A stretch of 64,000 nucleotides of DNA from Pseudomonadota bacterium (GTDB lineage: Bacteria; Pseudomonadota; Gammaproteobacteria; Burkholderiales; Burkholderiaceae_C): NCBI GenBank assembly GCA_963204815.1, contig CAUJHQ010000068.1, positions 21,771 to 85,770 of the forward strand, written 5' to 3'. Both the position numbers and the translations under genes were made by a program. Position 1 is the first letter of the stretch, and the number at the start of each line of letters is the position of its first letter. Positions 26,227-52,001 of this stretch are shown one piece after another. The notes beneath the pieces are model-generated. The model did not search any database, had not been told where the DNA came from, and was given only the letters and a program-made list of their open reading frames with translations.

Positions 26227-26240
<14 letters not shown>

Positions 26241-27432
26241 ACAGCAGCGCGGCGTTCGTGCCGCCGAACGCGAAGGAACTGGAGATCGCCGCCTGCAACT
26301 GCGGCGCCTCGGCGGCGGCGCCGAGCACGAGGTTCAGCTTGCAGGCCGGGTCGGGCTCGCGGCAGTGCGCGTTCGGCGGCAGCTGGCGCCGGTGCAGCGC
26401 CAGGATGGTGATCACCGCCTCCAGCGCCCCAGCGGCGCCGAGCAGGTGGCCGTGCAGCGCCTTCGTCGAGCTCACGCGCAGCTGCGGCAGGGCGTCGCCG
26501 AAGGCCAGCGCCAGCGCCTCGCTCTCGACGACGTCGCCGATCTTCGTGGCGGTGCCGTGGGCGTTGCAGTAACCCACGTCGGCGGCCGACAGGCCGGCCT
26601 GCTTCAGCGCCTGGCGCAGCGCACGTGCCTGGCCGGCGGCGTCGGGCTTGGTGAGGTGGGTGGCGTCGCAGCTGATGCCCCAGCCGGCGATCTCGGCGTA
26701 GGCACGGGCGCCGCGGGCGGCGGCGCGCGCCGCCGATTCGATGACGACGAAGGCCGCGCCCTCGCCGAGCACGAAGCCGCCGCGGTCGGTGGCGAAGGGC
26801 CTGCACGCGCCGGCGTGCTCGCCGGGCGCGAAGGGCGCCAGCGTCTGCATCGCCTGCCACGCCAGCACGACGCCGGGCACGATCAGCGCTTCGCTGCCGC
26901 CGGCGATGGCGACGTCGACCTCGCCGCGCTGCACCGCCTTCGCGGCCTCGGCGATCGCGACCGCCGACGACGCGCAGGCCACCGAGTAGGTGATGACCGG
27001 GCCCTTCACGCCCTGGCGCATGGCGACGTGGCCGGCGGCGGCGTTCGGCATGAAGGCGGGAATGGTGAGCGGCGGCACGCGGCCGTTCGAACGGTAAGCG
27101 GCCTCCAGCGCCGCCGCGCCACCCATGCCGCAGCCGGCGTAGACGCCGATGCGCTCGGCGTCGGCGCCACCGTGGCCACCGGCGTCGTGCAGCGCCATGT
27201 CGGCGGCGGCGACGGCGAGCTGGCTGACGCGGTCGACGCCGGCCAGCTGGAGCTTGGTGAACCAGCGCGATTCGTCGAAGGCCACCGTGGCGGCGGCGGC
27301 GGGCTTGGCAAGCTCGCCCTCGTGCACAGGGCGCACGGCGGATTCGCCGCGCAGCAGCGCCGCGAACATCGTGTCGGGATCCAGGCCGTGCGGCGAGGCG
27401 ACGCCGAGGCCCGTGACCAGCGCCTTCGTCAC
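26227..27432 (-). CDS. Beta-ketoacyl-ACP synthase (FabF-like KS1)
   Basis: SVACASS, HGTAT, GHLLGAAG, SFAFGGTN (Cys-His-His intact). Confidence 0.93.
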
Positions 27433-27439
27433 GCGCGGG

Positions 27440-27679
27440 TCACGCGGTCTGCGAGGCGCGTACCGTGTCGACGACGTTGGCCAGCTCGGCCAGCGTGTCG
27501 ATGTTGGAGTACTGGTCGGGCACGGAGATGCCGAAGCGGTCCTCGACCTCGAACAGGAACTCGACGAGAGCCAGCGAGTCGATGCCCGCCGTGCGCATCG
27601 ACGCGTTCGGGTCCAGGGTGGCCGGATCGATGCCGTACTTCTCCTGGATCAGGTCTTGCAATTCCTTCAGCGAGCTCAT
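27440..27679 (-). CDS. Acyl carrier protein (ACP1)
   Basis: 79 aa acidic, GIDSLALVE motif. Confidence 0.92.
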   Translation of the reverse strand: MSSLKELQDLIQEKYGIDPATLDPNASMRTAGIDSLALVEFLFEVEDRFGISVPDQYSNIDTLAELANVVDTVRASQTA

Positions 27680-27784
27680 TTCGGCGGACTCCGAATCGGT
27701 GTCGGCGAGACCCGACCCCTCCCGTATCTTCGGGCGCGTTACCCCTTGCCCGTGAGGGCCGATGATAGCCGCTCCGGTGTCGGG

Positions 27785-28510
27785 TCAAGCACGGGCGCGG
27801 CGCCGCAGCGACACCCAGGCGAACAGCCCGCCGAGCAGGCAGCCGCCGACGACGTCGAGCACGACGTGCTGGCGCACCGCCACCGTCGAGTACGCGATGG
27901 CGACGAACCAGGCCACGTTGACCCAGCGCAGCGCGGCCGGCGTGCGCAGCTCGACGAGGATGCGGTCGACCCAGGCGGCCGCGAAGAGCGCCGTCGCCAC
28001 GTGCAGCGACGGGCAGGCGTTGCCGGCGGCGTCCAGCCCCTGCAGCATCGCGAACGACGGGTGGCGGGCGAGGTCGATCGCCGTCGGCGGCACCGCCGTC
28101 GGCCAGAAGTAGAAGATCGCCAGCCCGCTGGCGCACAGCACGGCCGCCCAGGCGCCGTAGAGCAGCGCCTGGCGCAGGCCGGCCGCCAGCCCGGCCGGGA
28201 TGCCGACGTAGAACCACAGCGACAGGTACACCGCCAGCATCTGCGGCTGGAACGGGATCGCCCGGTCCAGCGCCGTCAGCGGCATCGTCGTCACCGGGTA
28301 GGCGGGGTGGCGCAGCAGGTGGAAGTAGCCGCTGAAGAACACCCACATGAAGAGGCAGACCCCGGCGAACTTGAGGATCTGGTGCTCGCGAAAACGGCGG
28401 CCGATGGCTGCGACCCACGGCACGGCGGAGCCCTGCCCGGGGACAGCGGCAGCGGTGGAAGCGTCGTGCAAGGCGGTACTGCGGCTGGAGTGGAGAGCAA
28501 AGCCTAACAT
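27785..28510 (-). CDS. PAP2/inositol-phosphorylceramide-synthase-like membrane enzyme
   Basis: Multi-TM, LDRAIPF, FYFWPT, NACPSLHVA, RQHVVLDVVGG; start uncertain (TTG 28471 possible). Confidence 0.82.
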   Translation of the reverse strand: MLGFALHSSRSTALHDASTAAAVPGQGSAVPWVAAIGRRFREHQILKFAGVCLFMWVFFSGYFHLLRHPAYPVTTMPLTALDRAIPFQPQMLAVYLSLWFYVGIPAGLAAGLRQALLYGAWAAVLCASGLAIFYFWPTAVPPTAIDLARHPSFAMLQGLDAAGNACPSLHVATALFAAAWVDRILVELRTPAALRWVNVAWFVAIAYSTVAVRQHVVLDVVGGCLLGGLFAWVSLRRRARA

Positions 28511-28618
28511 CGTCGACCGCGGGCGTCGGTGACATGCACCGTCGCGCGGGGGGACTTTGAGATAATCCCGGCTCACCGCCCCCGGCAAACCTCGCCACCG
28601 AGCGCCACCCGCTGCCGC

Positions 28619-29974
28619 ATGACCCAGGCGACGTCTCCCGCCCCCTCCGCCAGCCCCGAACCCTGCGACGTGCTCGTCGTCGGCGGCGGCCCGGCCGGCG
28701 CCACCATCGCCACCCTGCTGGCCCGCCAGGGCCGCGACGTGGTGCTGCTCGAGAAGGAGCACCACCCGCGCTTCCACATCGGCGAATCGCTGCTGCCGGC
28801 CAACCTGCCGCTGCTCGAGGCGCTCGGTGTGCGCGCCGAGGTCGAAGCGATCGGCATGCCCAAGTGGGGCATCGAGTTCGTCTCGCCTCAGCACGCGCAC
28901 CACAGCTTCTTCGAGTTCGCCGACGCCTGGGACAAGAGCATGCCCTTCGCCTGGCAGGTGCGGCGCGACGCCTTCGACGAGATCCTGTTCCGCAACGCCG
29001 CGCGCCACGGTGCGCGCACGCTCGAAGGCTGCCGCGTGCGCCGGGTGGCGTTCGACGCCGACGGCGCCGACGTCGAGGCGACGCTGGACGACGGCGCCAC
29101 GCGGCGCTGGCGCGCCCGCTTCGTCGTCGACGCCTCCGGCCGCGACACGCTGCTCGCCAACCAGTTCGACTGGAAGCACCGCAACGAGCGCCACAACAGT
29201 GCCGCGCTCTACGGCCACTTCAGCGGCGCGAAGCGGCTCGAAGGCAAGCTCGAAGGCAACATCAGCATCTTCTGGTTCCGCCACGGCTGGTTCTGGTTCA
29301 TCCCGCTGGCCGACGGCAGCACGAGCATCGGCGCGGTCTGCTGGCCGCACTACCTGAAGACGCGCGTCAAGCCGCTGAAGGACTTCTTCGCCGACACGAT
29401 CGCGCTCGCGCCGGAACTCGCGGCGCGCCTGGAAGGCGCCACGCTGATCGGCGACCGCGTCTGGGCCACCGGCAACTACGCCTACGGCAGCCGGCGCGCC
29501 ACCGGCGAACGTTTCCTGCTCGCCGGCGACGCCTACGCCTTCATCGACCCGGTGTTCTCGTCCGGCGTCTACCTGGCCATGCGCAACGCCTTCGCCGGCG
29601 CCGAGGCCGTCGCCGCCGTGCTCGACCGGCCGGCCGACGCCGCCGCCGCGCGCCGCCGCTACGAGCGCCACGTGCAGCACGGCCCGCGCGCCTTCTCGTG
29701 GTTCATCTACCGCATGACCAGCCCGACGATGCGCCACCTGTTCATGCACCCGGCCAACCCGCTGCGCACGAAGGAGGCCGTGCTCTCGCTGCTGGCCGGC
29801 GACATCTACGGCAACGTGCCGATCGGGCCTTCGCTCGGCGCCTTCAAGGGCGTCTACTGGTGGCTGTCGCTGCTGGCGCTGCCGCGCACCTTCGCGGCCT
29901 GGCGCGCCCGGCGCGCCAACATCCGCGATGTCGGCGCGCTCGAGGGCGAGAACGTCATGTCCGCCCACCGGTGA
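28619..29974 (+). CDS. FAD-dependent halogenase-family oxidoreductase (Hal1)
   Basis: GGGPAG, RFHIGESLLP, MPKWG, GWFWFIP (WxWxIP), GDAYAFIDPVFSSG. Confidence 0.85.
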   Translation: MTQATSPAPSASPEPCDVLVVGGGPAGATIATLLARQGRDVVLLEKEHHPRFHIGESLLPANLPLLEALGVRAEVEAIGMPKWGIEFVSPQHAHHSFFEFADAWDKSMPFAWQVRRDAFDEILFRNAARHGARTLEGCRVRRVAFDADGADVEATLDDGATRRWRARFVVDASGRDTLLANQFDWKHRNERHNSAALYGHFSGAKRLEGKLEGNISIFWFRHGWFWFIPLADGSTSIGAVCWPHYLKTRVKPLKDFFADTIALAPELAARLEGATLIGDRVWATGNYAYGSRRATGERFLLAGDAYAFIDPVFSSGVYLAMRNAFAGAEAVAAVLDRPADAAAARRRYERHVQHGPRAFSWFIYRMTSPTMRHLFMHPANPLRTKEAVLSLLAGDIYGNVPIGPSLGAFKGVYWWLSLLALPRTFAAWRARRANIRDVGALEGENVMSAHR

Positions 29975-30930
29975 GCGCCGTCCTGCCCACCGCCGACCGC
30001 CCGACCCCGTTGCACGCCCACCGCCGCGCCGCGGCGGACGGCGCGCTGCTGGGCGCGCTCGACTACGCCGCCCTCGGTCTGACGCACCTGGCCGGCCCGC
30101 GCGTCGACGCCTGGGACGCCGGCCCGGCGCGCCGCCGGCCCGGCGCGCTGCAACTGGCCGACGCCGGCGGCTGGGCCTTCGGCGCCATCGACCTGCCGGA
30201 GGACGGCCGCGGCCTCACCGCGCTGGCGCGCCAGGCCTATGGCGAGGTCTTCGCGGCGCTGCACGCGCTGGGCCGGCCACCGCTGCTGCGGCTGTGGAAC
30301 TACCTGCCGCGCATCAACGACGAGAGCTCCGGGTTGGAGCGTTACCGCCAGTTCAACGTCGGTCGCCAGGAGGCCTTCGTCGCTGCCGGCGAGGATGCGT
30401 TCGCCGGGTCGCCCGCGGCCTGCGCTCTGGGCAAGGCCGAGGGATCGCTGTCGATCCGCTTCCTCGCCGGGCCGACCCGCGTGCTGCCGCTGGAGAACCC
30501 GCGCCAGGTGCCGGCCTGGCGCTACTCGCAGCGCTACGGGCCGAAGGCGCCGACGTTCTCGCGCGCCGTGCTGGCCGACGTCGGCGGCGGCCGCGTCGCG
30601 CTGCTCGTGTCGGGCACCGCCAGCATCGTCGGCGAGGACTCCGTGCACCCCGGCGACGTGCGCGCGCAGACCGACGAGACGCTCGCCAACCTGCGCGCGC
30701 TGCTCGCCACCGCGCACGCGCGCAGCGACGCCCGCTTCGCGCTCGACGCGCTGGCGCTGACCGTCTACCTGCGCCACCCGCAGGACCGCGCCGCGGTGCA
30801 GGAGCGGCTGGCGCTGGCGGCGCCGCAGGCGGGCGCGAACGCCATCTGGCTGCAGGCGGACGTCTGCCGCAGCGAACTGCTGGTCGAGATCGAGGCGCAT
30901 GCCATTGCGCCCGGAAGGTTGCCGACATGA
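29971..30930 (+). CDS. XanB2/FkbO/Hyg5-family chorismatase (hydroxybenzoate synthase)
   Basis: RLWNYLPRIN, RYRQFN, PAACALG, ENPRQ, SGTASIVG, DVCRSELLVEIEA; GTGA overlap with Hal1. Confidence 0.88.
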   Translation: MSAVLPTADRPTPLHAHRRAAADGALLGALDYAALGLTHLAGPRVDAWDAGPARRRPGALQLADAGGWAFGAIDLPEDGRGLTALARQAYGEVFAALHALGRPPLLRLWNYLPRINDESSGLERYRQFNVGRQEAFVAAGEDAFAGSPAACALGKAEGSLSIRFLAGPTRVLPLENPRQVPAWRYSQRYGPKAPTFSRAVLADVGGGRVALLVSGTASIVGEDSVHPGDVRAQTDETLANLRALLATAHARSDARFALDALALTVYLRHPQDRAAVQERLALAAPQAGANAIWLQADVCRSELLVEIEAHAIAPGRLPT

Positions 30931-31730
30931 AGCGTGCGTGGATCCTCGGCGCGCTCGCGCTGCCGGCGCTGGCCCCGGCGGCCGAGAAGCCGCTGTGGGA
31001 ACTGGGCGCCGGCGTCGGCGGCCTGCACCTGCCGTACTACCGCGGCTCGAACAAGGCCAACGCGTGGCTGCTGCCGGTGCCGTTCTACGTCTACCGCGGC
31101 AAGATCTTCCGCGCCGACCGCGACGGCGCGCGCGCGATGCTGTTCGAGAGCGAGCGCGTCGACTTCGACATCAGCCTGGCGGCCACCGCGCCGTCGAAGG
31201 CGAAGGACGACCCGGCGCGCGAGGGCATGCCCGATCTCGCGCCGACGATCGAGATCGGCCCCAAGCTCAACATCAACCTGCTGCACAGCGGGCCGTGGAA
31301 GGTCGACTTCCGCATGCCGTTGCGCGGCGGTGTCACGGTCGAGAAGTCGTCGCGAAGCATCGGCTGGACGCTGACCCCGGTGCTCAACCTCGACTGGAAG
31401 GCACCCTGGATCGACGTCGGCATGCAGGCCGGCCCGTTGTGGGGCAACCGCCTGCAGCACAAGTACTTCTACGACGTGCCCTCCGAGTACGCCACCGCCA
31501 CCCGGCCGGCCTACAGCGCGCCCGGCGGCTACGCCGGCTGGCAGGCGACGCTGGCGCTGTCGCGCCGCTACGGCGACTTCTGGGTCGGCGCCTACGCGCG
31601 CCGCGACAGCGTGGCCGGCGCGGCGTTCGTGGCCAGCCCGCTCGTCACCGCGCGCCAGCACTGGTCCTACGGGTTCGCCACCGCATGGGTGTTCGCGGCA
31701 TCGACGACGAACGTCACGGTCGAGGACTGA
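30927..31730 (+). CDS. MipA/OmpV-family outer membrane protein
   Basis: Signal peptide, PLWELGAG, PYYRGS, REGMPDL, YFYDV. Confidence 0.8.
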   Translation: MKRAWILGALALPALAPAAEKPLWELGAGVGGLHLPYYRGSNKANAWLLPVPFYVYRGKIFRADRDGARAMLFESERVDFDISLAATAPSKAKDDPAREGMPDLAPTIEIGPKLNINLLHSGPWKVDFRMPLRGGVTVEKSSRSIGWTLTPVLNLDWKAPWIDVGMQAGPLWGNRLQHKYFYDVPSEYATATRPAYSAPGGYAGWQATLALSRRYGDFWVGAYARRDSVAGAAFVASPLVTARQHWSYGFATAWVFAASTTNVTVED

Positions 31731-32479
31731 TGGCGCGCGTGTTCCAGCCCTTCGCCTGGCTCGCCCTGCAGGCGATGCTGGCGGTGCTGGGCCTCAGCTC
31801 GCTGGCGTGGAACGGTGTCGCCTTCGCGCTCTACCCGCTGCTGCCGGCGGCGGTGGGGCGGCGCATCGGCCGCGCCGCCATCGCGCACGGCTACGGCCTG
31901 TACTGGCGCTTCGCTGCGCTCACCGGCATGCTCTACCTGCATGCCGACGAACTCGACCGACTGCGCGACGAGCCCGGCCTCATCGTCGTCGCCAACCACC
32001 CGAGCATGCTCGACGCCGTGATGCTCGTCGCCCGCCTGCCGCGCGCGGCCTGCGTGATGAAGGCCAGCCTGATGCGCAACCCGTTCCTCGCCGCCGGCGC
32101 GCGGCTGGCGCGCTACATCCGCAACGACACGCCCAAGGGCCTGGTGCGGCGCGCGGTCGACGACCTGAAGCAAGGCGGCCAGCTGGTGCTGTTCCCGGAG
32201 GGCACGCGCACCACGCAGTGGCCGCTGAACCCGTTCCGGCCCGGCTTCACGCTGATCGCGAAGATGGCCGGCGTGCCGATCCAGACGGTCTTCATCGACA
32301 CCGACTCGCCCTACCTCGGCAAGGGCTGGCCGCTGTGGCAGCTGCCGCCGCTGCCGATCGTGTTCTCGGTGCGGCTGGGCCGGCGCTTCGAGCCGAGCGA
32401 CGACCCGGCGGCGCAGCTCGCCGAGATCGAGGCCTACTTCGCCGCCGGCGTGCGGCCTGCCAGCCCCAAGGTCCCCTGA
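31730..32479 (+). CDS. Lysophospholipid acyltransferase (PlsC/ApeD-like)
   Basis: ANHPSMLD (HX4D), FPEGTRT. Confidence 0.9.
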   Translation: MARVFQPFAWLALQAMLAVLGLSSLAWNGVAFALYPLLPAAVGRRIGRAAIAHGYGLYWRFAALTGMLYLHADELDRLRDEPGLIVVANHPSMLDAVMLVARLPRAACVMKASLMRNPFLAAGARLARYIRNDTPKGLVRRAVDDLKQGGQLVLFPEGTRTTQWPLNPFRPGFTLIAKMAGVPIQTVFIDTDSPYLGKGWPLWQLPPLPIVFSVRLGRRFEPSDDPAAQLAEIEAYFAAGVRPASPKVP

Positions 32480-33252
32480 TGGAAGCCTCGCGCAGCCACC
32501 TCGTCCTGATCCCCAGCTACAACACCGGCGCCACCGTCTACGAGACCGTGGCCCAGGCGCGCGCGCGCTGGAACCCGGTGTGGGTGGTCGTCGACGGCAG
32601 CACCGACGGCACCGCCGAGCGCCTGCAGGCGATGGCCGCCGCCGACCCCGGCCTGCGGGTGGAGGTGCTGCCGGCGAACCAGGGCAAGGGCTCGGCCGTG
32701 CTGCACGGCCTGGCCGCCGCGCGGGCCGCCGGCTTCACGCACGCGCTGACGATGGACGCCGACGGCCAGCACCCGGCCGACCTGATCCCCGCGTTCATGC
32801 AGGCGTCGATCGCGCGGCCCGAGACCATGGTGCTCGGCCGCCCGGTGTTCGACGCCAGCGCGCCGCTGCTGCGCGTGCGTGGGCGCAAGGTGTCGAACTG
32901 GTGGGCCAACCTGGAGACGCTGGGCGCCGGCATCGGCGACTCGCTCTACGGCTTTCGCGTCTACCCGATCGCCCACCTCGAGGCGGTGATGCGCGGCCAG
33001 CGCTGGATGCGGCGCTTCGACTTCGACCCCGAGGCGGTGGTGCGGCTGGCGTGGCGCGGCGTCAAGCCGCTGAACCTGGACGCGCCGGTGAAGTACCTGA
33101 GCGCCGAGGAGGGCGGCGTCTCGCACTTCCGCTACGGCCGCGACAACGTGCTGCTCACCTGGATGCACACGCGGCTGATGGTGGAGTTCGTGCTCCGCCT
33201 GCCGCTGCTGGCCTGGCGCCGGTGGCGCGGCGCGCCGCCGTTCCAGGCGTAG
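32479..33252 (+). CDS. Glycosyltransferase family 2
   Basis: LIPSYN, VDGSTDGT, NQGKG, MDADGQH, GFRVYP. Confidence 0.92.
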   Translation: MEASRSHLVLIPSYNTGATVYETVAQARARWNPVWVVVDGSTDGTAERLQAMAAADPGLRVEVLPANQGKGSAVLHGLAAARAAGFTHALTMDADGQHPADLIPAFMQASIARPETMVLGRPVFDASAPLLRVRGRKVSNWWANLETLGAGIGDSLYGFRVYPIAHLEAVMRGQRWMRRFDFDPEAVVRLAWRGVKPLNLDAPVKYLSAEEGGVSHFRYGRDNVLLTWMHTRLMVEFVLRLPLLAWRRWRGAPPFQA

Positions 33253-39571: not shown

Positions 39572-39698
39572 GCAATGTCCCTTCCAGAGGTTGAAACGTG
39601 TGGGGATGTATCCACGCTGTCCATGCTAACCGCGCCGGCACGGGGTTTTGAAGCCCCGGATATCGTGGGTGTGGATGAACTTCCCGCCGACCGCACCG

Positions 39699-42563: not shown

Positions 42564-42637
42564 GTGGCCCCCCAGGCGCTGCGCGCCGGCCCCCCGAGGG
42601 GGCATGAGCGCCTTCGGAGCGGCCGTGCGGCGCTCAT
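42560..42637 (-). repeat. Short palindromic (REP/MITE-like) insert encoding a 25-aa coupling mini-ORF
   Basis: ATGAGC at both ends, internal inverted repeat ATGAGCGCC/GGCGCTCAT, CCCCCTCGGGGG palindrome; ORF MSAARPLRRRSCPLGGPARSAWGAT. Confidence 0.65.
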
Positions 42638-43818: not shown

Positions 43819-44606
43819 GCGCGGCCCGCCCCGGCGCCGGCGGCGCGGTCGGCCGCGCGGTCGGCGACGAGCAGCACGTTCGCGAACGGCGTGCCCTCGC
43901 TCATCGGCACCGGCTGCGCGGCAAAGCCCAGCCGCTGCAGCAGCGCCAGCCACTCGGCCACCGAGCGGCCCCAGGTCGGCGGCACCGTGTGGCCGCGCAC
44001 CATCGTGACGACGCGGTCGACCCACTGGCTGACCGCGAAGCCGCGTGCGCTGGCCATGTCGCCGATGCGCAGCAGCAGGCGGCCGTTCGGCGCCAGCGCG
44101 TCGCGCACGCGCGCCAGCAGTGCTTCCTGTGCCGCGTGGTCGACGTAGTGCAGCACGTCGAGGATGACGACGAGGTCGCAGGGCGGCAGCGCCGCCTCAC
44201 GCATGTCGGCGCAGACGAAGCTCGTCTGCAGCTTGAGGCCGGCAAGCGCGCCGCGCGCGCGCTCGACGTCGCGCGGCATCAGCTCGATGCCGGTGTAGGC
44301 GACGGCGCGCGGCGGCGCCGGCCAGCGGCCCGGCCAGGCGCCGGCGGCGACGAGTTCGTTGCAGCTCTCGAACAGGCTCGCCAGCAGGCTCTGGCCGCTG
44401 CCGATGTCGACGATGCGCGTGCGACCGCTCAGGTCGCCGCGTTCCAGCATGCCGCGGAACACCGGGTCGCGGCCGAGCTTGCCGCGCGCGAAGTGCCAGG
44501 CGAAGCGGCCCGACGCGCGGTAGCGCGCGGTGGCGGCGTCGTGCAGACGGCGCCAGGTGGTGTCGGCGTCGGGGGCGGGGCCGGCGGTCATCGTCTGGGA
44601 GCTCAT
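43815..44606 (-). CDS. Class I SAM-dependent methyltransferase
   Basis: GKLGRDPVF, VDIGSGQS, ILDVLHY, GTPFANV. Confidence 0.85.
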   Translation of the reverse strand: MSSQTMTAGPAPDADTTWRRLHDAATARYRASGRFAWHFARGKLGRDPVFRGMLERGDLSGRTRIVDIGSGQSLLASLFESCNELVAAGAWPGRWPAPPRAVAYTGIELMPRDVERARGALAGLKLQTSFVCADMREAALPPCDLVVILDVLHYVDHAAQEALLARVRDALAPNGRLLLRIGDMASARGFAVSQWVDRVVTMVRGHTVPPTWGRSVAEWLALLQRLGFAAQPVPMSEGTPFANVLLVADRAADRAAGAGAGRA

Positions 44607-45445
44607 GGTCGGGGGTGGCGCGGCGGCAGCGCGGCGGTCAGCGTCTCGGGGTGCAGGCCGGCGCCGCGGCAGCGTTCGGCCAGCGCCGGCAGCACGTCCA
44701 GCAGCACCGCGCGGCCGCTGCCGCTGCGGCGTGCGTGGCCGTCGTGCAGCAGCAGGATGTCGCCGCCGGCCAGGCCGCGCGCCAGCCTGGCCAGCACGCG
44801 GGCCGGGTCGGCCTCGCGGGTGTCGAAGCCGCGCCGCGTCCAGCTGACCAGGTGCAGCCCCAGCCCGTGCAGCACGGGGTCGAGGAAGGGGTTGCGCAGG
44901 CCGGCGGGCGCGCGGAAGGCATGCGGGCGGCAGCCGGTGATGTCGGCCAGGATCGACTGCGCGTCGCCGACCTCGCGCTCGAGGGCGCGCGGCCCCATCA
45001 CCGAGAAGTGGTGGCGGTGGTGCGCGCTGTGGTTCTGCACGTCGTGGCCGGCGGCGACGATGCGGCGCACCAGCGCCGGCTGCTGGCGGGCGCGCTCGGC
45101 GATGCAGAAGAAGCTGGCGTGCCAGCCCAGCGCGGCCAGCGTGTCCAGCACCAGCGGCGTGGTCTCGGCGTCGGGGCCGTCGTCGATGGTCACGGCGATC
45201 GCGCCGCGCGCCACCGCGGCGGGCGGCAGGCGCTGCACGTTCGGGCCCAGGCCCTCGCTGCGCGGCCACAGGCCGGTGGCGGTGATCAGCACGTGGTTCA
45301 GCACCACGGCACCCAGCGCCCACGGTGCGGCCCCCGGCAGCAGCGCGGCGGCGCCGAGCGCGGCCGCGTGCACGCCGACGCTGGCGCGCAGCAGCGGCGG
45401 CCAGGGCCAGCGGGTCGGGGGGGAGGCGGTGGGGGTGGACAGCAT
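44603..45445 (-). CDS. Membrane-anchored polysaccharide deacetylase (NodB/CE4)
   Basis: TIDDGP, NHSAHH, FRAPAG, ILLLHDG, N-terminal TM helices. Confidence 0.9.
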   Translation of the reverse strand: MLSTPTASPPTRWPWPPLLRASVGVHAAALGAAALLPGAAPWALGAVVLNHVLITATGLWPRSEGLGPNVQRLPPAAVARGAIAVTIDDGPDAETTPLVLDTLAALGWHASFFCIAERARQQPALVRRIVAAGHDVQNHSAHHRHHFSVMGPRALEREVGDAQSILADITGCRPHAFRAPAGLRNPFLDPVLHGLGLHLVSWTRRGFDTREADPARVLARLARGLAGGDILLLHDGHARRSGSGRAVLLDVLPALAERCRGAGLHPETLTAALPPRHPRP

Positions 45446-45477: not shown

Positions 45478-47832
45478 TTATGACCTTCGGGGTGCAAAGG
45501 CGGCGGACAGCACGAGCGCGAGCAAGGTGCCCGGCGCGACCACCCGGCCGATGGCCGACAGCGCCGGCATCGAGGACATCGCGATCAGCGCGAACGACAG
45601 CACCGTCGTCAGGTTGGCGAGCATCAGCGAGGCCAGCGTGTCGTCGTCCGGGTGCGCCTGGTCGGCGAGCATGTTGAAGAAGAGCGCGTAGTTCGAGCCC
45701 ACCGCCACCACGAGCAGCAGGCCGACGAGGTGCAGGATGCCCAGCGACACGCCCAGCGCCGCCAGCACGCCCATCGTCAGCAGCACCGCCAGCACCAGCG
45801 GCTGGCAGACGGCGAGCACGCGCCGCACCGAACGCAGCGCGAAGGCCACCAGCGCCAGCACGCCGAGCGAGCCGAACAGCGCCTGCGTCTGCGCCTCGTG
45901 CAGGTAGCGCGCGTACAGGCGGTCGAGCTCGGGCTTGATCTCGAGCATGGTCGTCTCCGGCACGCCCTGGATCGCGGCGGCGACGGCGGCCTTGTCGACC
46001 TCGGCGCCGACCGGCTGGATCGGCAGCAGCGCCGCCCAGCCGCCGTCGCCACGCCGGAACATCAGGGCCGACAGCAGCGGGGCCAGCGGGCCGGCGCGCG
46101 CCGACTCCGGCGTCGCGAGGTCGAGGGCGCGCGCCTTCTGCACCTCGTCGATGAAGGGCGCCAGGCGCTCGGCCTTCAGCGGGCCGCCGCGGGTGGCTTC
46201 GGTGAGCGCGGCCCGCAGCGCCTGGGCGTCGGGCAGCGCGGCGCGGCGTGCCTGCTGCGTGGCCTGGCTGGGCATCAGGCGCGTCACGCTCTCGAAGCCG
46301 GCGATCTTTCGCTGCTCGATCAGCGGCTCGAGCGCGGCGCTGGCGCGTTCGGCGCGCTGCAGCGTCTCTTCGGCGGTCGGGCCCTGCACGACGACGAGCG
46401 CGCCGGCGTCGGCCGAGCTGAGGTCGCCGCGCAGCGACTCGTCGAGCGCGATCGCCTCGCGCGGCACCGGCGACAGCGCGGCGAGGTCGGCGCGCCAGAG
46501 CTCGCCGCGCCACAGCAGCACGCCGACCGCCACCGCGCCCAGCAGCAGCCAGGCGCTGCGCGTGGCCGGCAACACCGCCATCGCGCGCGCCGCGAAGCGG
46601 CCGAGGTGGCGCCGCAGCCCCTGGCCGCGCGAGCCTTCGGGCATCAGCACCGGCAGCAGGAAGCGCGTGGTGATGGCCGCGGCCACCAGCCCGGTGACCG
46701 AGAACACGCCCAGCTGCGCCAGCCCCGGGAAGCCCGAGAACACGAGCGCGAGGAAGCCACACACCGAGGTCAGCACGCCCAGCCGGATGGTCGGCCAGCC
46801 GGTCGCCAGCCAGTGGCGCCAGCCGCGCTGCGCGCTGCCGGCGCCGCCGCCGTGGGCCTGGATCAGGTAGTAGATGGCGTAGTCGACCGCCTCGCCGATC
46901 AGCGTGGTGCCGAAGCCCAGCGTGATGCCGTGCACGCCGCCGAAGCCCAGCGCCACCGCGGCGATGCCGGCGACGACGCCGGTGCCCACCGGCAGCATCG
47001 CCACCACCAGCGCCAGCGGCGACGCGAAGGCCACCAGCAGCAGCGAGCACATCAGCAGCGTGCCGACGATCGCGAGCCACTGCACCTCGGCCTCGATGCG
47101 GGCGCGGCTGTCGACCGAGAACAGCGGCGTGCCGCTCATCTTCAGCGTCAGGCCCGGCGCCGCCACCTCGGCGAAGGTGCGGCGCACGCCGTCCATCGCG
47201 ACCAGCTGCGCGTCGAGGTCGGCGCCTTCGGCCTTCACCACCGCCAGCAGCACGGCGCGGCCGCCGGCGCGCGCGGCCCAGACGCCGTCCTCGGTGCGCG
47301 GCGCGCTGACCGGGATCATGCTTTCGGCGATGCGCTGCGTCTCGCCGGTGGGGTCGCGCTCGAGCAGCGGCTTGAGCGCGTTGCCGGCCGGCGTGCCCAG
47401 CAGCGACAACGACTCGTCGATCGCGTCGGCCAGCCCCGCGGGCGTGAAACGCTCCGGCGTCACCGCCGGGCTCAGCAGGTAGCGGCGCTCGAAGACCCAG
47501 GTGCCGATGTCCTGCCAGGCGCTCTGGTCGCCGTTCTGCACCTGCTCGAAGAGGCCGCTGGCGCGCAGCTTCTGGCCGAGCGCGCGCGACGCCGCGCCGC
47601 GCTGCTCGGGCGTGCCGCCGTCGATGCCCAGCATCAGCGTGCGCGCCGGCAGGCCGCTCTTCAGCTGGTCGATCAGCATGCGCTGGCCGGCATCGGGGCT
47701 GGCCGGCAGGAAGGCGCTGAGGTCGGCGGTGAAGGGCGTGCGCGTGATCTGCCACGCCGCCAGCGCCACCGCGGCGAGCCAGAAGAAGACGACGATCGCG
47801 GCGCGCGAGCGCGCCACCCGGTGCGGCGTCAT
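45478..47832 (-). CDS. MMPL/RND-family exporter (ApeM-like)
   Basis: TADLSAFLP, GFGTTLIGEAVDY, AVGSNYALFF; two TM blocks with periplasmic loops. Confidence 0.9.
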   Translation of the reverse strand: MTPHRVARSRAAIVVFFWLAAVALAAWQITRTPFTADLSAFLPASPDAGQRMLIDQLKSGLPARTLMLGIDGGTPEQRGAASRALGQKLRASGLFEQVQNGDQSAWQDIGTWVFERRYLLSPAVTPERFTPAGLADAIDESLSLLGTPAGNALKPLLERDPTGETQRIAESMIPVSAPRTEDGVWAARAGGRAVLLAVVKAEGADLDAQLVAMDGVRRTFAEVAAPGLTLKMSGTPLFSVDSRARIEAEVQWLAIVGTLLMCSLLLVAFASPLALVVAMLPVGTGVVAGIAAVALGFGGVHGITLGFGTTLIGEAVDYAIYYLIQAHGGGAGSAQRGWRHWLATGWPTIRLGVLTSVCGFLALVFSGFPGLAQLGVFSVTGLVAAAITTRFLLPVLMPEGSRGQGLRRHLGRFAARAMAVLPATRSAWLLLGAVAVGVLLWRGELWRADLAALSPVPREAIALDESLRGDLSSADAGALVVVQGPTAEETLQRAERASAALEPLIEQRKIAGFESVTRLMPSQATQQARRAALPDAQALRAALTEATRGGPLKAERLAPFIDEVQKARALDLATPESARAGPLAPLLSALMFRRGDGGWAALLPIQPVGAEVDKAAVAAAIQGVPETTMLEIKPELDRLYARYLHEAQTQALFGSLGVLALVAFALRSVRRVLAVCQPLVLAVLLTMGVLAALGVSLGILHLVGLLLVVAVGSNYALFFNMLADQAHPDDDTLASLMLANLTTVLSFALIAMSSMPALSAIGRVVAPGTLLALVLSAAFAPRRS

Positions 47833-48434
47833 CTGCCGGCGACGGGTTCGACCTGCATCAGCGAGCGGTCGCCGCCGGCCAGGCGCAGGTCGATGCTGCG
47901 CACGTCGGTGCGCTGGCCGACGATGTCGATGCGCGCCACCTGGGCCGCCAGGCGGGCGTCGATCGGCACCAGCGCGAGCTGCCAGCGCGTGGGCGCGCCG
48001 GTGACTTCGGTCTTGAAGTGGCGCTGCAGCCGCGCCGCGTCGCCCGACAGCGTGCCGCGCACGGCGTCGACCAGGGCGGCCAGTTCGGGAATGGTGTTCA
48101 GCGCCATCGTGCGCGTGCGCCCGCCGCGCTTGAGGATCGCGGTGTCGCCCTGCACCTCCATCGATTCGGTGCGCGGCTCGGTCTGCACGCGCGTGAAGCG
48201 GTCGGGCGCGGCGAAGCTGAGCGTGCCGCGCGAGTACAGCGGCGTGTCAAGCGACGAGACGGTGCGCTCCTCGGTGAAGCGCGCCTCGGCGCTCTTGCGC
48301 TGCGCCAGCAGCGCCATCAGCGCCGGCAGGTCGAAAGCCTGCGCGGCAGCGGGCAGCGGCAGCAGCGCCGCTGGCAGCAGCGCGAGCAGGAGGATCGCGG
48401 CCCGGCGGCCGCGCTCAGCGAGGGTGGTCCTCAT
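47829..48434 (-). CDS. LolA-like periplasmic lipid carrier (ApeL-like)
   Basis: Signal peptide, ARFTEER, SRGTLSF, WQLALVP, GGDRS. Confidence 0.85.
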   Translation of the reverse strand: MRTTLAERGRRAAILLLALLPAALLPLPAAAQAFDLPALMALLAQRKSAEARFTEERTVSSLDTPLYSRGTLSFAAPDRFTRVQTEPRTESMEVQGDTAILKRGGRTRTMALNTIPELAALVDAVRGTLSGDAARLQRHFKTEVTGAPTRWQLALVPIDARLAAQVARIDIVGQRTDVRSIDLRLAGGDRSLMQVEPVAGR

Positions 48435-49356
48435 GCCAGAAGTCGAGGAAGTTGAACCAGTTGTACGGCGCGTCGCGCACCCGCGCCTCCATTCGCCCGA
48501 CGTAGGCGACCATCGCCTCGCGCACCAGGCGGTCGCGCTCGGCGGGGTCGTCGGGCGGGTGGCTGAAGTCTGCCAGCGTCTCGAAGGTGATGTCGTAGCG
48601 GTTGCCGCCGCGGTACAGGCCGACCATGAAGATGACCTTGCGCTTGAGCAGCATCGCCAGCCGCAGCGGGCCGTCGACGAAGGGCGCCGGCACGCCCAGG
48701 AAGGGCAGCATCGTCGGCGTGGCGCGCAGCGCGTCGGCGGGCAGGAAGCGGTCGCCGAGCAGGCCGACGAGACCGCCCTGGTCGAGCCAGTCGCGGATCT
48801 GCAGCGTGCTGCCGCGCTGGCCGATCGGGATGATGCCGAGCTCGAACTCCGGCGCCACGGCCTGCAGCACGCGGTGGATCATGCGGGCGTTGTCGGGGTA
48901 CATCACCATCGCCACGCGCAGCCCGGGGCGGGTGGCGCCCACCGCGTGCAGCGCCTCGAAGCTGCCCACGTGGCCGCCGAGCAGCACCGCGCCGCGCCCG
49001 TCGAGCAGCGTCTCGTCGACGAGCGTGTCGCCGACGATGTGCAGGTCGAACACGTCCATGCGCCCCTTGACGAACCAGATGCGGTCCAGCGCCACCGACG
49101 CGAACGCGTGCACGTGGCGGTAGCCGTCGGCGATGGTCGGCGTGCGGCCGAGCACGCGCCCGAGGTAGCGCTTGCTGTGGCGTCGCGCGGTCGGCGAGAA
49201 CAGCACGTAGTACAGCGTGATCGGGTGCAGCACGAGGCGGGCGACGCGGCGCCCCAGGTGCACCGCGATCCACGCGATCAGCCAGAGCGCGAAGCGGTTG
49301 CTGCGCTCGCGCGCCTCGGTCCAGTCGGGGGGCGGCGGGGCCGCGGTGGAGCTCAC
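48415..49356 (-). CDS. LpxL/LpxP-family acyltransferase
   Basis: GHVGSFE, LLGDR, FLG, PYNWFNFLDFW. Confidence 0.88.
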   Translation of the reverse strand: MSSTAAPPPPDWTEARERSNRFALWLIAWIAVHLGRRVARLVLHPITLYYVLFSPTARRHSKRYLGRVLGRTPTIADGYRHVHAFASVALDRIWFVKGRMDVFDLHIVGDTLVDETLLDGRGAVLLGGHVGSFEALHAVGATRPGLRVAMVMYPDNARMIHRVLQAVAPEFELGIIPIGQRGSTLQIRDWLDQGGLVGLLGDRFLPADALRATPTMLPFLGVPAPFVDGPLRLAMLLKRKVIFMVGLYRGGNRYDITFETLADFSHPPDDPAERDRLVREAMVAYVGRMEARVRDAPYNWFNFLDFWHEDHPR

Positions 49357-49418
49357 GGGGCGACCCTCCGCACGGCGTGCTCCGGGATCCGCACTGGGGA
49401 GCGGCCCTGCACGATCAT
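49353..49418 (-). repeat. Second short insert encoding a 21-aa coupling mini-ORF
   Basis: ATGA overlap at 5' end, GTGA overlap at 3' end; MIVQGRSPVRIPEHAVRRVAP; shares GGCCGCTCC with the 42560 element. Confidence 0.55.
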
Positions 49419-51055
49419 GCCGACAAGCTGCCGCGCGCGACCACGGTGTCGCCGCGCGTGACCTCGAAGGCGACGCCGCGGCCGGCGTCGGCGAGCTTCA
49501 CGCGCACGCGCTGGCCGGGGCCGACCGGGGCGAGGAACTTGGCCTGGTCGATCGCCGGCGCGGCGCCCAGCTTCTGCGCCAGCGCCGGCTGCAGCGCCAG
49601 CGCCTCCATCACCCAGCCCAGCAGCACCACGCCGGGCAGCAGCGGGTGGCCGGGGAAGTGGCCGGCGAAGGCGGGGTGGTCGACGGGCACGGCGAACTCG
49701 GTGCCGTCCAGCCGCGCCAGCGTCTCGTGCGCGAAGCGCGCCAGCGTCTGCGCGGTGAGCTTGCCGGTGGCTTCGCGCGGGAAGCCGTCGACGTGGATCA
49801 CGCGGCGCGGCACGAAGGCGGGCTCGAGCCGCTCGCGCAGCGCGGCGACGACGGCCTTGGCGTCGAGCGTGGGCGCGACGACGAAGGCGATCGGCCGCAC
49901 GACGCCGTCCGGCGCCTCGTCGGGCAGCCAGAAGGCGCCGTCGTCGATGCCGTCGATGCGGTTGAGCTGGAAGTTCAGGTGCGCCAGCGAACTGCGCTTG
50001 CCGGCGACGTGGATCAGGTCGTTGGCGCGGCCGAGCAGCCGGAAGCGCGTGTCCGACAGCAGTTCCAGCACGTCGGCCTGCGGCGTCGGCGCGGTGACGT
50101 GGCCGCCCTGCACGAGGAAACGCTCGCCGTCGGCGCCGTCCTCGCGCCACAGGCGCAGCGCGCCGAGCGCGGCCCAGGTCTCGCCGTCCGTCGTGCGGCG
50201 CGCCGCCACCTGGCCGGCTTCGGTGCAGCCGTAGATCTCGACGAGGCGGCCGCCGAACGCGGCTTCGGCCTGCGCCGCCAGCTGCGGCGACAGCGGCGCT
50301 GTGGCCGACAGCACCAGGTCGACCGGCGGCAGTTCGACGCCGGCGAGCAGCAGCGTCTTCAGGTGGAACGGCGTCGTGACGAGGGCGCGCGGCCGCGGCA
50401 CGCGCGCCAGCGCGGCCGCCACGTCGGCGGGGTAGAAGGGCCGGCCGGCGTCGAAGGCGGCGCCGCCCAGCAGCGCCAGCAGCACCGTCGACTCGAAGCC
50501 GTAGCTGTGCTGCGCCGGCACCGTGGCGACGATGTTCAGGCCGGCGATCGACGGCGTGCCCATCAGTTCGGCCAGGCGTTCGGCCTCGGCGGCGATGTTG
50601 GCGACCAGCGGGCCCCAGCGCTTGGCGTGCGGCTGCGGCGCGCCGGTGGAGCCGCTGGTGAGCAGGCAGACGGCCTCGTGCCCGGCCGCGATCGCCGGCA
50701 CGCGCGTTGCCGGCACCGCGCCGGCCGCGCGCTCGACGCGGTGCACCGGCAGCGCCACCGGGTCGTCGTGGTCGACCAGGGCGTAGGGCGCCGGGCCGTC
50801 GCCCAGCTGCGCCAGCGTTTCCGGCAGCGCGTTCGGCGGCATCAGGCTGGTCTGGCCGCGCAGCAGCGCGGCGGCGAGGCCGAGCGCGAAGTGGTAGCGG
50901 TCCTGGCAGAGGTTGACCGGCCGGCCGGCCGGCAGGCGCTCGGCCAGCGCCTCGGCCTCGGCGACGAACTGCGCCGTGCTCACCGGCTGGCCGGCGCGCC
51001 ACGCGAGCGGCGCCGCCAGGTCGCGGGCGGCGATCATCGGCAGCGGCAGGCTCAT
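49415..51055 (-). CDS. AMP-dependent aryl/acyl-ACP ligase (XanA2/ApeH-like) fused to ApeI-like dehydratase
   Basis: TSGSTGAP, EIYGCTEAG, LLGRAND, TGKL, then HPAFAGHFPGHPLLPGVV hotdog motif. Confidence 0.88.
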   Translation of the reverse strand: MSLPLPMIAARDLAAPLAWRAGQPVSTAQFVAEAEALAERLPAGRPVNLCQDRYHFALGLAAALLRGQTSLMPPNALPETLAQLGDGPAPYALVDHDDPVALPVHRVERAAGAVPATRVPAIAAGHEAVCLLTSGSTGAPQPHAKRWGPLVANIAAEAERLAELMGTPSIAGLNIVATVPAQHSYGFESTVLLALLGGAAFDAGRPFYPADVAAALARVPRPRALVTTPFHLKTLLLAGVELPPVDLVLSATAPLSPQLAAQAEAAFGGRLVEIYGCTEAGQVAARRTTDGETWAALGALRLWREDGADGERFLVQGGHVTAPTPQADVLELLSDTRFRLLGRANDLIHVAGKRSSLAHLNFQLNRIDGIDDGAFWLPDEAPDGVVRPIAFVVAPTLDAKAVVAALRERLEPAFVPRRVIHVDGFPREATGKLTAQTLARFAHETLARLDGTEFAVPVDHPAFAGHFPGHPLLPGVVLLGWVMEALALQPALAQKLGAAPAIDQAKFLAPVGPGQRVRVKLADAGRGVAFEVTRGDTVVARGSLSA

Positions 51056-51684
51056 CGCGCCCCCGCCGAGTGCGACTGGTAGGCGCGCAGCGCATTCGCG
51101 ATGCTGACGCGCTCGAATTCGGGGTGGCGGCGGTAGCGCATCAGGTGCTCGACGGCGAAGAGCGCGATGGCGGCCAGCGGCGTCAGCGCGTTGCAGAAGA
51201 ACGACCACCACTCCCAGGGCGCCAGCGTGTACAGCAGCACCGAGATGACGACCATGGCGGCGAAGTACAGCGCCCAGACGCCGGTGAGCCAGCGCGTGTA
51301 GTCGCGCATCGCCTGGGTGAAGTTGGTGTGCACGCGCTCGCCGAGCATCGTGATGAGCGCCATCGAGCCCGGCCGCAGCGTCATCGCGAAGGTCCAGCAG
51401 AGCACCGCGTTGATGGCGCCGTGCTGCATGACGTACAGGCGCCGCACGTCGGCCACGCCGCCGTGCGCGACGACCGCCACGACGACGGCGATGCAGGCTG
51501 CCGCGAAGGCGAGGGTCGGCCAGTGGCGCCGCTTCAGCCCGGTGATGCCGATCGCCGCCAGCAGCGGGCCGAACAGCGCCGCCACCGTCCAGGGCTGGGC
51601 CGGCATGTGGATCATCAGCCAGTGCGACAACCAGCCATACCCGGCGAGGGCGATCACGGCGGCCAGGAGGCGCCAACCGGGCAT
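51052..51684 (-). CDS. Integral membrane protein (ApeG/COG4648-like)
   Basis: Multi-TM, FAMTLRPG, YTRWLTGVW, WWSFFCN. Confidence 0.8.
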   Translation of the reverse strand: MPGWRLLAAVIALAGYGWLSHWLMIHMPAQPWTVAALFGPLLAAIGITGLKRRHWPTLAFAAACIAVVVAVVAHGGVADVRRLYVMQHGAINAVLCWTFAMTLRPGSMALITMLGERVHTNFTQAMRDYTRWLTGVWALYFAAMVVISVLLYTLAPWEWWSFFCNALTPLAAIALFAVEHLMRYRRHPEFERVSIANALRAYQSHSAGAR

Positions 51685-51692
51685 GCGGCGCC

Positions 51693-52001
51693 TTACTTCG
51701 TGCGGTGCTGGGCGACGTGGGCGGCCAGGCTGCGCAGGGACTGGAAGATCTTGTGGTTGTTCTCGTCGTCCGAACGCAGCTGGAAGCCGTAGCGGTGCGA
51801 GATCTCGAGGGCGACTTCGAGGATGTCGATCGAGTCGAGGCCGAGGCCGTCGCCGAACAGCGGCGCGGCGGCGTCGATCTCGGCCGCCGGGGTCTCAAGG
51901 TTGAGCGCGTCGACGAAAAGCTGCGCGAGCTCGCGCTCGAGCGCCAGCTGCTCGGGGGACAGCGCGGCGGCGTCGGCGGAGGCGGAGGACTGCAAGGACA
52001 C
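51693..52001 (-). CDS. Acyl carrier protein (ACP2, XanC/ApeE-like)
   Basis: PLFGDGLGLDSIDILE; GTG start after GGGAG. Confidence 0.92.
   Translation of the reverse strand: MSLQSSASADAAALSPEQLALERELAQLFVDALNLETPAAEIDAAAPLFGDGLGLDSIDILEVALEISHRYGFQLRSDDENNHKIFQSLRSLAAHVAQHRTK

Follow-up and report, generated by a model that had tools for sequence, protein, structure and literature searches.

Gene content predicts a xanthomonadin/arcuflavin-type aryl-polyene lipid cluster with two ketosynthase-chain-length factor lineages in a Rubrivivax-like bacterium

We analyzed a 64,000-nucleotide stretch of DNA (the window; contig CAUJHQ010000068.1 of assembly GCA_963204815.1, positions 21,771 to 85,770 of the forward strand) that carries a putative aryl-polyene (APE) gene cluster. 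The host genome is a 4.58-Mb Rubrivivax-like metagenome-assembled genome (MAG) of 192 contigs that is 82.8% complete. A sequence-only reading had described about 27 genes at 26227 to 52001 as a halogenated aryl-polyene lipid cluster. At the 72 to 75% GC of this DNA, raw lists of open reading frames (ORFs) are mostly noise, and genes were therefore called by third-position GC content (GC3); functions were assigned by Pfam and NCBIfam scans. Exactly 27 intact ORFs were found at 26227 to 52016, the last of which extends 15 nt beyond the end point given earlier, and most adjoining genes overlap by 4 nt. Pfam and NCBIfam agreed with the functions first proposed, as did domain content with the path drawn from a chorismatase through methylation and halogenase-family tailoring to lipid attachment and export. 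This gene set is far beyond chance. The genes, with the matches on which their assignment is based, are as follows.

26227-27432, minus: ApeR-type (FabF-like) ketosynthase (KS) without a chain-length factor (CLF) partner (Pfam ketoacyl-synt N and C)
27440-27679, minus: ACP1, AcpP-like acyl carrier protein (ACP) (PP-binding, 3e-12; GIDSL motif)
27785-28348, minus: PAP2/PAP2_3 membrane phosphatase or phosphotransferase (PF01569, PF14378; frame taken from the GC3 plot, start codon uncertain within 28285-28510)
28529-29974, plus: Hal1, flavin-dependent halogenase in the ArcA/XCC4013 position beside the chorismatase (Trp_halogenase, 4.5e-31)
29971-30930, plus: XanB2/ArcB-like chorismatase (FkbO_Hyg5-like_N, 1.7e-34, plus a YjgF-like domain; TIGR04444, 201 bits)
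30927-31730, plus: MipA-family outer-membrane protein in the ArcC position (PF06629, 5e-36)
31685-32479, plus: PlsC-type lysophospholipid acyltransferase, ApeD/ArcD-like (PF01553; 33% identity to ApeD)
32479-33252, plus: family 2 glycosyltransferase (GT2) corresponding to the N-terminal half of ApeJ (ArcE/XCC4000; PF00535)
33266-34531, minus: accessory HD/HD_5 (HD-GYP-like) protein (PF13487, PF01966)
34632-36260, minus: Hal2, a second, divergent flavin-dependent halogenase (Trp_halogenase, 9e-17)
36326-37060, minus: CLF_b, truncated ApeC-like CLF (PF13723, 2e-24)
37057-38262, minus: KS_b, second ApeO-type KS (NF006618, 417 bits; catalytic triad)
38259-38942, minus: alpha/beta-hydrolase, possible thioesterase or esterase (weak Esterase/Abhydrolase matches; GISLGG nucleophile elbow)
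39029-39571, minus: 180-amino-acid (aa) lipoprotein, possibly BamE/SmpA-like (lipobox LVGC)
39648-40601, plus: 317-aa Tat-signal lipoprotein (RRR motif and LAAC lipobox)
40598-41329, minus: FabG-type ketoreductase (KR), ApeQ/XanH-FabG3/ArcH (adh_short; NF004200, 341 bits)
41326-41784, minus: candidate hot-dog dehydratase (DH) in the ApeP/ArcI/XCC4004 position (weak ApeP-like Pfam match, E value of 0.005)
41781-42605, minus: CLF_a, ApeC/ArcJ/XCC3999 (PF13723, 6e-30)
42634-43818, minus: KS_a, ApeO-type elongating KS, ArcK/XCC3998 (NF006618, 530 bits; catalytic triad)
43815-44606, minus: S-adenosylmethionine-dependent (O-)methyltransferase in the ArcM position (Methyltransf_2, _25, and _12)
44603-45445, minus: NodB-type polysaccharide deacetylase, ArcN (PF01522, 3e-24; NodB model TIGR04243, 7e-25)
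45478-47832, minus: MMPL/RND exporter, ApeM/ArcP/XCC4005 (PF03176; HpnN-like)
47829-48434, minus: LolA-like periplasmic carrier, ApeL/ArcQ (LolA_3, 1e-24; matches the flexirubin LolA2 model)
48415-49356, minus: LpxL-type acyltransferase corresponding to the C-terminal half of ApeJ (ArcR/XCC4008; PF03279)
49415-51055, minus: aryl-acid:ACP ligase fused to a FabA/ApeI-type DH (XanA2/ArcT plus ArcS; ApeH plus ApeI) (AMP-binding plus FabA/ApeI-like)
51052-51684, minus: hydrophobic polytopic membrane protein in the ArcU/XCC4011 position (no Pfam match; weak similarity to ApeG, E value of 5e-4)
51693-52016, minus: ACP2, aryl-polyene carrier protein, ApeE/ArcV/XanC (NF006617, 130 bits)

The ORFs fall into four transcription units and a lone plus-strand lipoprotein gene (39648-40601). 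The PAP2 protein, ACP1, and the FabF-like KS are encoded on the minus strand from 28348 to 26227, and Hal1, the chorismatase, MipA, the PlsC-type acyltransferase, and GT2 on the plus strand from 28529 to 33252. A second minus-strand unit (39571 to 33266) holds the 180-aa lipoprotein, the hydrolase, KS_b, CLF_b, Hal2, and the HD protein. The longest (52016 to 40598, minus strand) begins with ACP2, the membrane protein, the ligase-DH fusion, the LpxL-type acyltransferase, LolA, and MMPL and continues with the deacetylase, methyltransferase, KS_a, CLF_a, DH, and KR. To the left lie housekeeping genes (glutaminyl-tRNA synthetase [GlnRS] and a chromate transporter); the right flank opens with a LytTR regulator and a LytS-type kinase.

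Grammbitter et al. define the APE core as KS (apeO/R), ACP (apeE/F), CLF (apeC), DH (apeI/P), KR (apeQ), and transporter (apeM) genes; in the literature, ApeR is assigned to initiation and ApeO:ApeC to elongation. All core genes of the genetically characterized Escherichia coli CFT073 ape cluster (apeB to apeR) had BLASTP counterparts in the window. The FabF-like KS, 34% identical to E. coli ApeR over its full length, grouped with ApeR at 99% support in a KS tree and would be the initiating KS. ApeO-type KSs with truncated ApeC-type CLFs were also found: KS_a and CLF_a are 47% and 32% identical to ApeO and ApeC, respectively, while KS_b is 40% identical to ApeO and CLF_b is 40% identical to ApeC and 45% identical to CLF_a. 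The Cys-His-His triad is kept in all three KSs, and both CLFs are of the truncated, N-terminal-half type (Ketoacyl-synt_2, PF13723) first described for Lysobacter ORF16 (PMC3691225). Dedicated ACPs, a KR, and two hot-dog DHs complete the chain-building set. ACP2 is 46% identical to ApeE, ACP1 has 94% identity to its counterparts in two Rubrivivax MAGs, and both ACPs carry the DSL/DSI serine motif; the KR is 46% identical to ApeQ. The two DHs are the weakly supported ApeP-like protein and the FabA/ApeI-like domain of the ligase fusion.

Two features place the cluster near the xanthomonadin type. The first is the presence within it of both a XanB2-type chorismatase, whose specificity for 3- or 4-hydroxybenzoate (HBA) is not readable from sequence, and a XanA2-type aryl-acid:ACP ligase. 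The ligase protein aligns to ApeH residues 5 to 451 and ApeI residues 29 to 101, indicating that the two are fused here. The second is the presence of two flavin-dependent halogenase genes. The ten best-scoring Protein Data Bank matches of Hal1 were nine halogenases (CndH, PltA, Bmp2-type, CmlS, and others) and one unnamed flavoprotein, with E values down to 2e-51, and 11 of the 12 matches of Hal2 were halogenases, the twelfth being an unnamed flavoprotein. All named closest solved structures of the two proteins (CndH, PltA, Bmp2-type, CmlS, RadH, and ChlB4) are flavin-dependent halogenases. The GxGxxG motif, the catalytic-lysine context, and the WxWxIP and DPxxSxG motifs are kept in both (Lys112, WFWFIP, and DPVFSSG in Hal1; Lys81, WVWLIP, and DPFYSPG in Hal2). 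Hal1 and Hal2 are thus credible halogenases by sequence rather than generic monooxygenases, and halogenation of the product is plausible from the genes.

The remaining core genes point to lipid attachment and export. The GT2 is 38.5% identical to ApeJ residues 1 to 241 and the LpxL-type acyltransferase 28% identical to residues 250 to 550, so that ApeJ appears to be split here. The exporter is 27% identical to ApeM over 579 aa by BLASTP. An RND/MMPL transporter, a LolA-like partner, and ApeD/ApeJ-type enzymes, the latter with both halves of ApeJ matched, are therefore present together. In the aryl polyene lipids (APELs) of Xenorhabdus, the polyene is esterified to N-acetylgalactosamine-phosphate-glycerol, also with a conjugated fatty acyl chain and a saturated acyl chain; ApeD and ApeJ function in attachment and ApeM, ApeL, ApeN, and ApeG in export (bioRxiv 10.1101/2020.12.19.423268). 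Since the GT2, LpxL-type, PlsC-type, MMPL, and LolA proteins are homologous to ApeJ, ApeD, ApeM, and ApeL, the attachment machinery is, as judged by homology, that of the solved APELs. Of the two lipoproteins, the 317-aa protein tentatively adopts a LolA/LolB/LprG-superfamily-like fold, as almost all Foldseek matches of its model were to that superfamily (DUF1329, NE2245, LolA3, LprG, LppX, and RseB; E values of 2e-5 to 1e-3). Matches of the 180-aa lipoprotein model (pLDDT of 70.8) to BamE and BLIP were not significant (E value of ≥0.25 for BamE).

The closest characterized betaproteobacterial cluster, the arc genes of Azoarcus, yields an ester of an aryl polyene with a dialkylresorcinol (DAR), from dar genes that are not linked to the arc loci (PMC3949708). 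A comparable arrangement could be hidden here, with darAB in the unassembled 17% of a MAG that is only 82.8% complete. As the DAR marker we used the DarB model NF053539, and as the DarA candidate the ORF upstream of darB in Uliginosibacterium. NF053539 had no match in the host genome, at that completeness, and scored at most 41 bits, the level of FabH, in five related Rubrivivax genomes, one of them complete and one a 6.7-Mb single contig. In Uliginosibacterium, the positive control, it scored 465 bits, and the StlD/DarB model NF005293 scored 579 bits. Likewise, tblastn searches with Uliginosibacterium DarB and the DarA candidate found nothing in the host genome or in 80 loci fetched from the best genome matches of KS_a, all of which are closer relatives than Xanthomonas and Azoarcus. 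The earlier observation that no DarA or DarB is visible thus holds beyond the window. With the searches negative and the control positive, an arcuflavin- or flexirubin-type DAR ester is an unlikely product, and one encoded by unassembled darAB genes is highly improbable.

Several candidates were rejected in the course of these searches. Neither of the two FabH-like genes of the host genome is DarB: one lies in an unrelated ACP/FabZ/SDR/AsnB-like/ligase cluster, and the other is HMG-CoA-synthase-like and adjoins a thiolase gene. NF053538 and NF053540 were discarded as DarA models, the former describing a Kce-type enzyme and the latter flexirubin LolB2. The control organism, Uliginosibacterium sp. 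strain 31-16, carries a DAR locus (L101, on G007:C4) with a StlD/DarB-family KS (579 bits), a 328-aa upstream ORF, and a DarH-like acyltransferase gene. The 328-aa DarA candidate had no NCBIfam match. This locus is unlinked to the APE cluster of the strain (L055), and with both loci the strain is probably a producer of the arcuflavin type.

We put at roughly 85% the probability that the region is a functional APEL-type biosynthetic gene cluster (BGC) of the xanthomonadin/arcuflavin ("arc") subtype, in a Rubrivivax-like betaproteobacterial MAG, with no DAR involved. The predicted product is a membrane-bound yellow aryl-polyene pigment lipid. In the mechanism that we propose, every step of which is drawn from homology, the XanB2/ArcB-like chorismatase would convert chorismate to 3- (and 4-) hydroxybenzoate, which the ligase-DH fusion (XanA2/ArcT/ApeH-like) would adenylate and load onto the ApeE-like ACP2. 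The ApeR-type KS would prime the chain, ApeO:ApeC-type KS:CLF heterodimers would extend it with malonyl units, and the FabG-type KR and two hot-dog DHs would render it a conjugated polyene. The methyltransferase would O-methylate the ring, and, given available halide, one or both halogenases may add bromine or chlorine to it. The polyene would then be joined to an aminosugar-phospho-glycerolipid anchor by the PlsC-type acyltransferase, the split ApeJ (GT2 and LpxL-type), the NodB-type deacetylase, and the PAP2 protein. Transfer to the outer membrane would involve the ApeG-like membrane protein, the MMPL/RND pump, the LolA-like carrier, the LolA/LolB-fold lipoprotein, and MipA, and the pigment there would protect against light and oxidative stress. 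The adjacent LytS/LytTR pair would regulate the cluster.

Several points weigh against this interpretation. The cluster is known from genes alone, in an uncultured, 82.8%-complete MAG. Azoarcus gave only a DAR ester as its product, which leaves its GT, deacetylase, and acyltransferase genes unexplained, and although it carries the Hal1-type gene arcA, arcuflavin was found to be nonbrominated. The DH call at 41326 to 41784 is weakly founded, on a sub-threshold Pfam match and position; BLASTP similarity to ApeP was not significant. For the 317-aa lipoprotein, the model behind the LolA/LolB-like fold is of low confidence (pLDDT of 55.6).

Conservation in relatives bears on whether the cluster is functional. 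By KS_a, the best-matching relatives are Rubrivivax MAGs (85 to 86% identity), and other Sphaerotilaceae and Burkholderiales rank next. In identical order, 26 of the 27 genes recur both in Rubrivivax MAG_AAO_H10.81 and in the completely sequenced Rubrivivax sp. strain RP6-9 (NZ_CP187368), with proteins 60 to 94% identical to those of the window; the former is missing the 317-aa lipoprotein and the latter the HD protein, and GlnRS adjoins the cluster in both as well. Across the 80 loci, a core was kept in about 55 to 80, consisting of one run from ACP2 through the membrane protein, ligase-DH, acyltransferase, LolA, MMPL, deacetylase, methyltransferase, KS_a, CLF_a, and DH to the KR and a second run of GT2, PlsC, and MipA. 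The 152-aa DH is conserved in 76 of the 80. Between the KR and GT2, gene content varies: KS_b, CLF_b, and Hal2 are all present in 12 of 55 informative loci, Hal2 alone in 5, and neither in 38. This mosaic of accessory content would suit a silent or decaying remnant from which the host obtains no pigment, as would the frequent silence of APE clusters under laboratory conditions; the one in Xenorhabdus required promoter activation. Against decay stand the strong GC3 coding signal across all 27 intact ORFs, the 4-nt translational coupling, the retained catalytic residues, and the order and sequence kept across species; we consider a remnant very improbable.

The chorismatase gene is also variable. 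In several relatives (Rubrivivax genomes G003 and G005 [L004 and L019] and loci L010 and L026), MipA abuts Hal1 directly in clusters with both Hal1 and Hal2. The chorismatase query gave no match in genomes G003 and G005, so that the aryl starter must come from elsewhere there, and such genomes would be natural variants of the starter route.

The distinctive feature of the cluster is its second KS-CLF pair. In a tree of 115 sequences, the KSs formed three groups: an ApeR-type group that includes the FabF-like KS, an a-type ApeO-like group, and a long-stemmed b-type clade that contains KS_b (100% support) and, in this tree, comprises only Sphaerotilaceae loci that also carry KS_a. The identity between KS_a and KS_b is only about 46 to 48%, comparable to that between KS_a and E. 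coli ApeO. This low identity and the separate long-stemmed clade led us to reject a recent duplication as the source of KS_b. An even sample of 301 Burkholderiales genomes was searched for ApeO-type KSs; 91 had one or more, and only 2 had two. (Two of the 91 genomes, G036 and G215, are unpublished, and neither is the basis of any specific claim.) The only other genome of the 301 with two such KSs, G149, has them on different contigs (C5:211163-212353 and C1:903124-904167).

The five best non-self matches of KS_b (51 to 58% identity) lie in short fetched loci of 2.6 to 4.2 kb in other families. There, the b-type KS-CLF is the only pair seen, a halogenase gene follows directly, and each genome has one KS match. 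The published genes vapar_0260 to vapar_0262 of Variovorax have the same layout, and some other Burkholderiales thus seem to rely on the module of KS_b, CLF_b, and halogenase for their only pair. The remaining loci carry the a-type unit, KS-CLF-DH-KR, arranged as in Azoarcus. As each type seems to suffice alone elsewhere, the Rubrivivax cluster is, on this sequence evidence, a merger of two ApeO:ApeC-type KS-CLF lineages. The alpha/beta-hydrolase and the two lipoproteins are further extras.

The second pair may alter chain length or be redundant, or it may make a further conjugated chain, a task in which ApeF is proposed to assist in APELs. One scheme assigns a chain to each system: KS_a/CLF_a would build the aryl polyene on ACP2, and KS_b/CLF_b, together with the ApeR-type KS, ACP1, the hydrolase, and Hal2, would supply another acyl chain, conjugated or halogenated. 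The resulting lipid would bear two polyenes, or a de-N-acetylated sugar with its polyene in amide linkage, and would represent an undescribed scaffold. In Xenorhabdus APELs, a further conjugated fatty acyl chain is already present and is attributed to ApeF, the second ACP; two ACPs are present here with an extra KS:CLF pair of independent lineage and a NodB-type deacetylase that the E. coli cluster does not have, and at least 12 Rubrivivax-type loci conserve the KS_b module in intact form. However, either pair seems to be the sole KS:CLF in other genomes and may be redundant or tune chain length, there are only one KR and one free-standing DH, ACP1 has no BLAST similarity to ApeF, and nothing links Hal2 to a nonaryl substrate. 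The scheme, which elaborates the APEL-type explanation rather than proposing another family, is in our judgment unlikely. It is similarly doubtful that the merger, with Hal2, the hydrolase, the deacetylase, and PAP2, yields an undescribed lipid with two distinct conjugated chains or a lipid-A-like amide-linked polyene on a de-N-acetylated aminosugar, with up to two ring halogens.

Two regulatory genes adjoin the cluster.

52145-52933, minus: LytTR response regulator, ArcX-like (Response_reg and LytTR)
52930-54000, minus: LytS/YehU-type histidine kinase, ArcW-like (His_kinase PF06580 and HATPase_c)

The regulator is linked to ACP2 in many loci, and because the pair is placed like arcW/arcX in Azoarcus, the cluster probably reaches as far as 54000. 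Immediately upstream of the kinase, at 54005 to 56214, are genes for an alpha/beta-hydrolase (Hydrolase_4), a DUF6622 protein, and a DUF1499 protein, the first two tightly spaced or overlapping with the kinase gene. At 57825 to 59962, 4 to 8 kb from the presumed photoprotective pigment cluster, the genes for a short BLUF blue-light sensor and a PAS-GGDEF-EAL protein are translationally coupled; their products could form a light/cyclic di-GMP input. The HD gene, inserted between Hal2 and GT2, was shared by the window with its two nearest relatives (L001 and L002) alone, which marks it as a recent accessory gene; its product is perhaps regulatory. Elsewhere in the host genome, a separate lipid-type cluster (G000:C113; L083, 5024-12227) encodes an ACP, a FabZ-like protein, an SDR, a FabH-like KS III, an AsnB-type amidotransferase (XrtA/PEP-CTERM-like), an exosortase-associated acyl coenzyme A ligase, a second ACP, and an NAD-synthase-like protein.

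No bacterial BGC family is considered more widespread than the APE clusters, and the complete lipid has been solved for the Xenorhabdus/E. coli type only. Our literature search found no paper on aryl polyenes of Rubrivivax. The point added here is that two KS:CLF lineages, each apparently solitary elsewhere in Burkholderiales, coexist in a conserved Rubrivivax architecture, and strain RP6-9, with a complete genome and 26 of the 27 genes, offers a handle on the role of each pair. No new class of system is opened, and the result will not surprise a specialist.

For comparison with known systems, we used published gene tables for Azoarcus and Xanthomonas and our own BLASTP searches for E. coli. 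The arc genes of Azoarcus sp. strain BH72, which direct arcuflavin synthesis, lie in two loci, arcA to arcL and arcM to arcX (Schoner et al. 2014, PMC3949708 Table 1, where arcC is also listed), and the roles of ArcB and ArcT are characterized (PMC3949708). By table, the two systems share the order halogenase-chorismatase-MipA-acyltransferase-GT, the order KS-CLF-DH-KR, and the order methyltransferase-deacetylase-(hypothetical)-exporter-LolA-acyltransferase-DH-ligase-hypothetical-ACP-histidine kinase-response regulator. Both have betaproteobacterial hosts and a 3-HBA starter route (predicted here), and functions match almost gene for gene. Unlike in Azoarcus, the genes here form a single locus, the ligase and DH are fused, the PAP2 gene and the ApeR-type KS and ACP genes are inside the cluster, and a second KS-CLF pair, a second halogenase, the alpha/beta-hydrolase, two lipoproteins, and the HD protein are added; the product there is a DAR ester, whereas no DarAB was found in the genome here.

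The ape systems of E. coli CFT073 and Xenorhabdus doucetiae share the overall plan of a type II polyketide synthase followed by glycolipid attachment and RND/Lol-like export. They differ in drawing on a 4-HBA pool, in contrast to the cluster-encoded chorismatase (3-HBA type) here, and the halogenases, NodB deacetylase, PAP2, MipA, and extra KS:CLF pair are found only in the window. Conversely, the ApeK thioesterase, ApeN (DUF3261), ApeA, and the ApeB-type methyltransferase had no sequence homologues in the window cluster, and hhalign comparison of both lipoprotein families with E. coli ApeN aligned only the signal peptide and lipobox. Flexirubin clusters of Bacteroidota share the aryl-polyene chemistry and give weak window matches to the FlxB reductase and LolA2 models but require DarA/DarB and a tyrosine-derived starter, and DarB was not found here. 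The yellow pigment of Lysobacter enzymogenes OH11 is a photoprotective xanthomonadin-like aryl polyene whose cluster likewise has a stand-alone KS with a truncated CLF-like partner (ORF17/ORF16), a XanB2 homologue, an ACP, a KR, two DHs, and a LolA-like protein; unlike the window, it has no halogenase genes and a single KS-CLF pair, and the pigment is nonbrominated (PMC3691225).

The pig cluster of Xanthomonas campestris (XCC3998 to XCC4015; PMC3949708 Table S4) comprises KS (3998), CLF (3999), GT (4000), halogenase (4001 and 4013), KR (4003), DH (4004 and 4009), exporter (4005), LolA-like (4007), acyltransferase (4008 and 4010), ACP (4012), XanB2 (4014), and ligase (4015) genes, and each of these functions recurs here. 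Its product, xanthomonadin, is a membrane-bound pigment made without a DAR; products of this type are brominated, O-methylated omega-(3-hydroxyphenyl)polyenes. Xanthomonadin-type clusters without DAR genes are also listed for relatives that include Methylibium petroleiphilum and Thiomonas (PMC3949708 Table S7). Hal1 stands beside the chorismatase, as do XCC4013 and arcA; Hal2 lies near GT2 with the HD gene between, while XCC4001 directly adjoins the GT gene XCC4000. With XCC4001 and XCC4013, the canonical xanthomonadin cluster already has two halogenase genes. Table S4 differs in gene order and holds no methyltransferase, NodB deacetylase, MipA, PAP2, second KS-CLF, or ApeR-type KS and ACP.

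These parallels set the more ambitious proposals of the sequence-only reading in proportion. Neither its ranking of the system as a top novel candidate nor its scaffold unlike the characterized ones is supported: the gene set maps onto arcA to arcX, XCC3998 to XCC4015, and apeB to apeR, the attachment and export genes are homologues of ApeJ, ApeD, ApeM, and ApeL, and DAR-free relatives were already listed. Its halogenated product retains the backing of two credible halogenases, tempered by the nonbrominated pigment of an arcA-bearing Azoarcus. Of the expansion that it noted, the second KS-CLF pair is unusual; two halogenase genes are already present in Xanthomonas. By its gene content, then, the cluster belongs to the known xanthomonadin/arcuflavin/APE family, and what is new is an architecture with a second KS-CLF pair.

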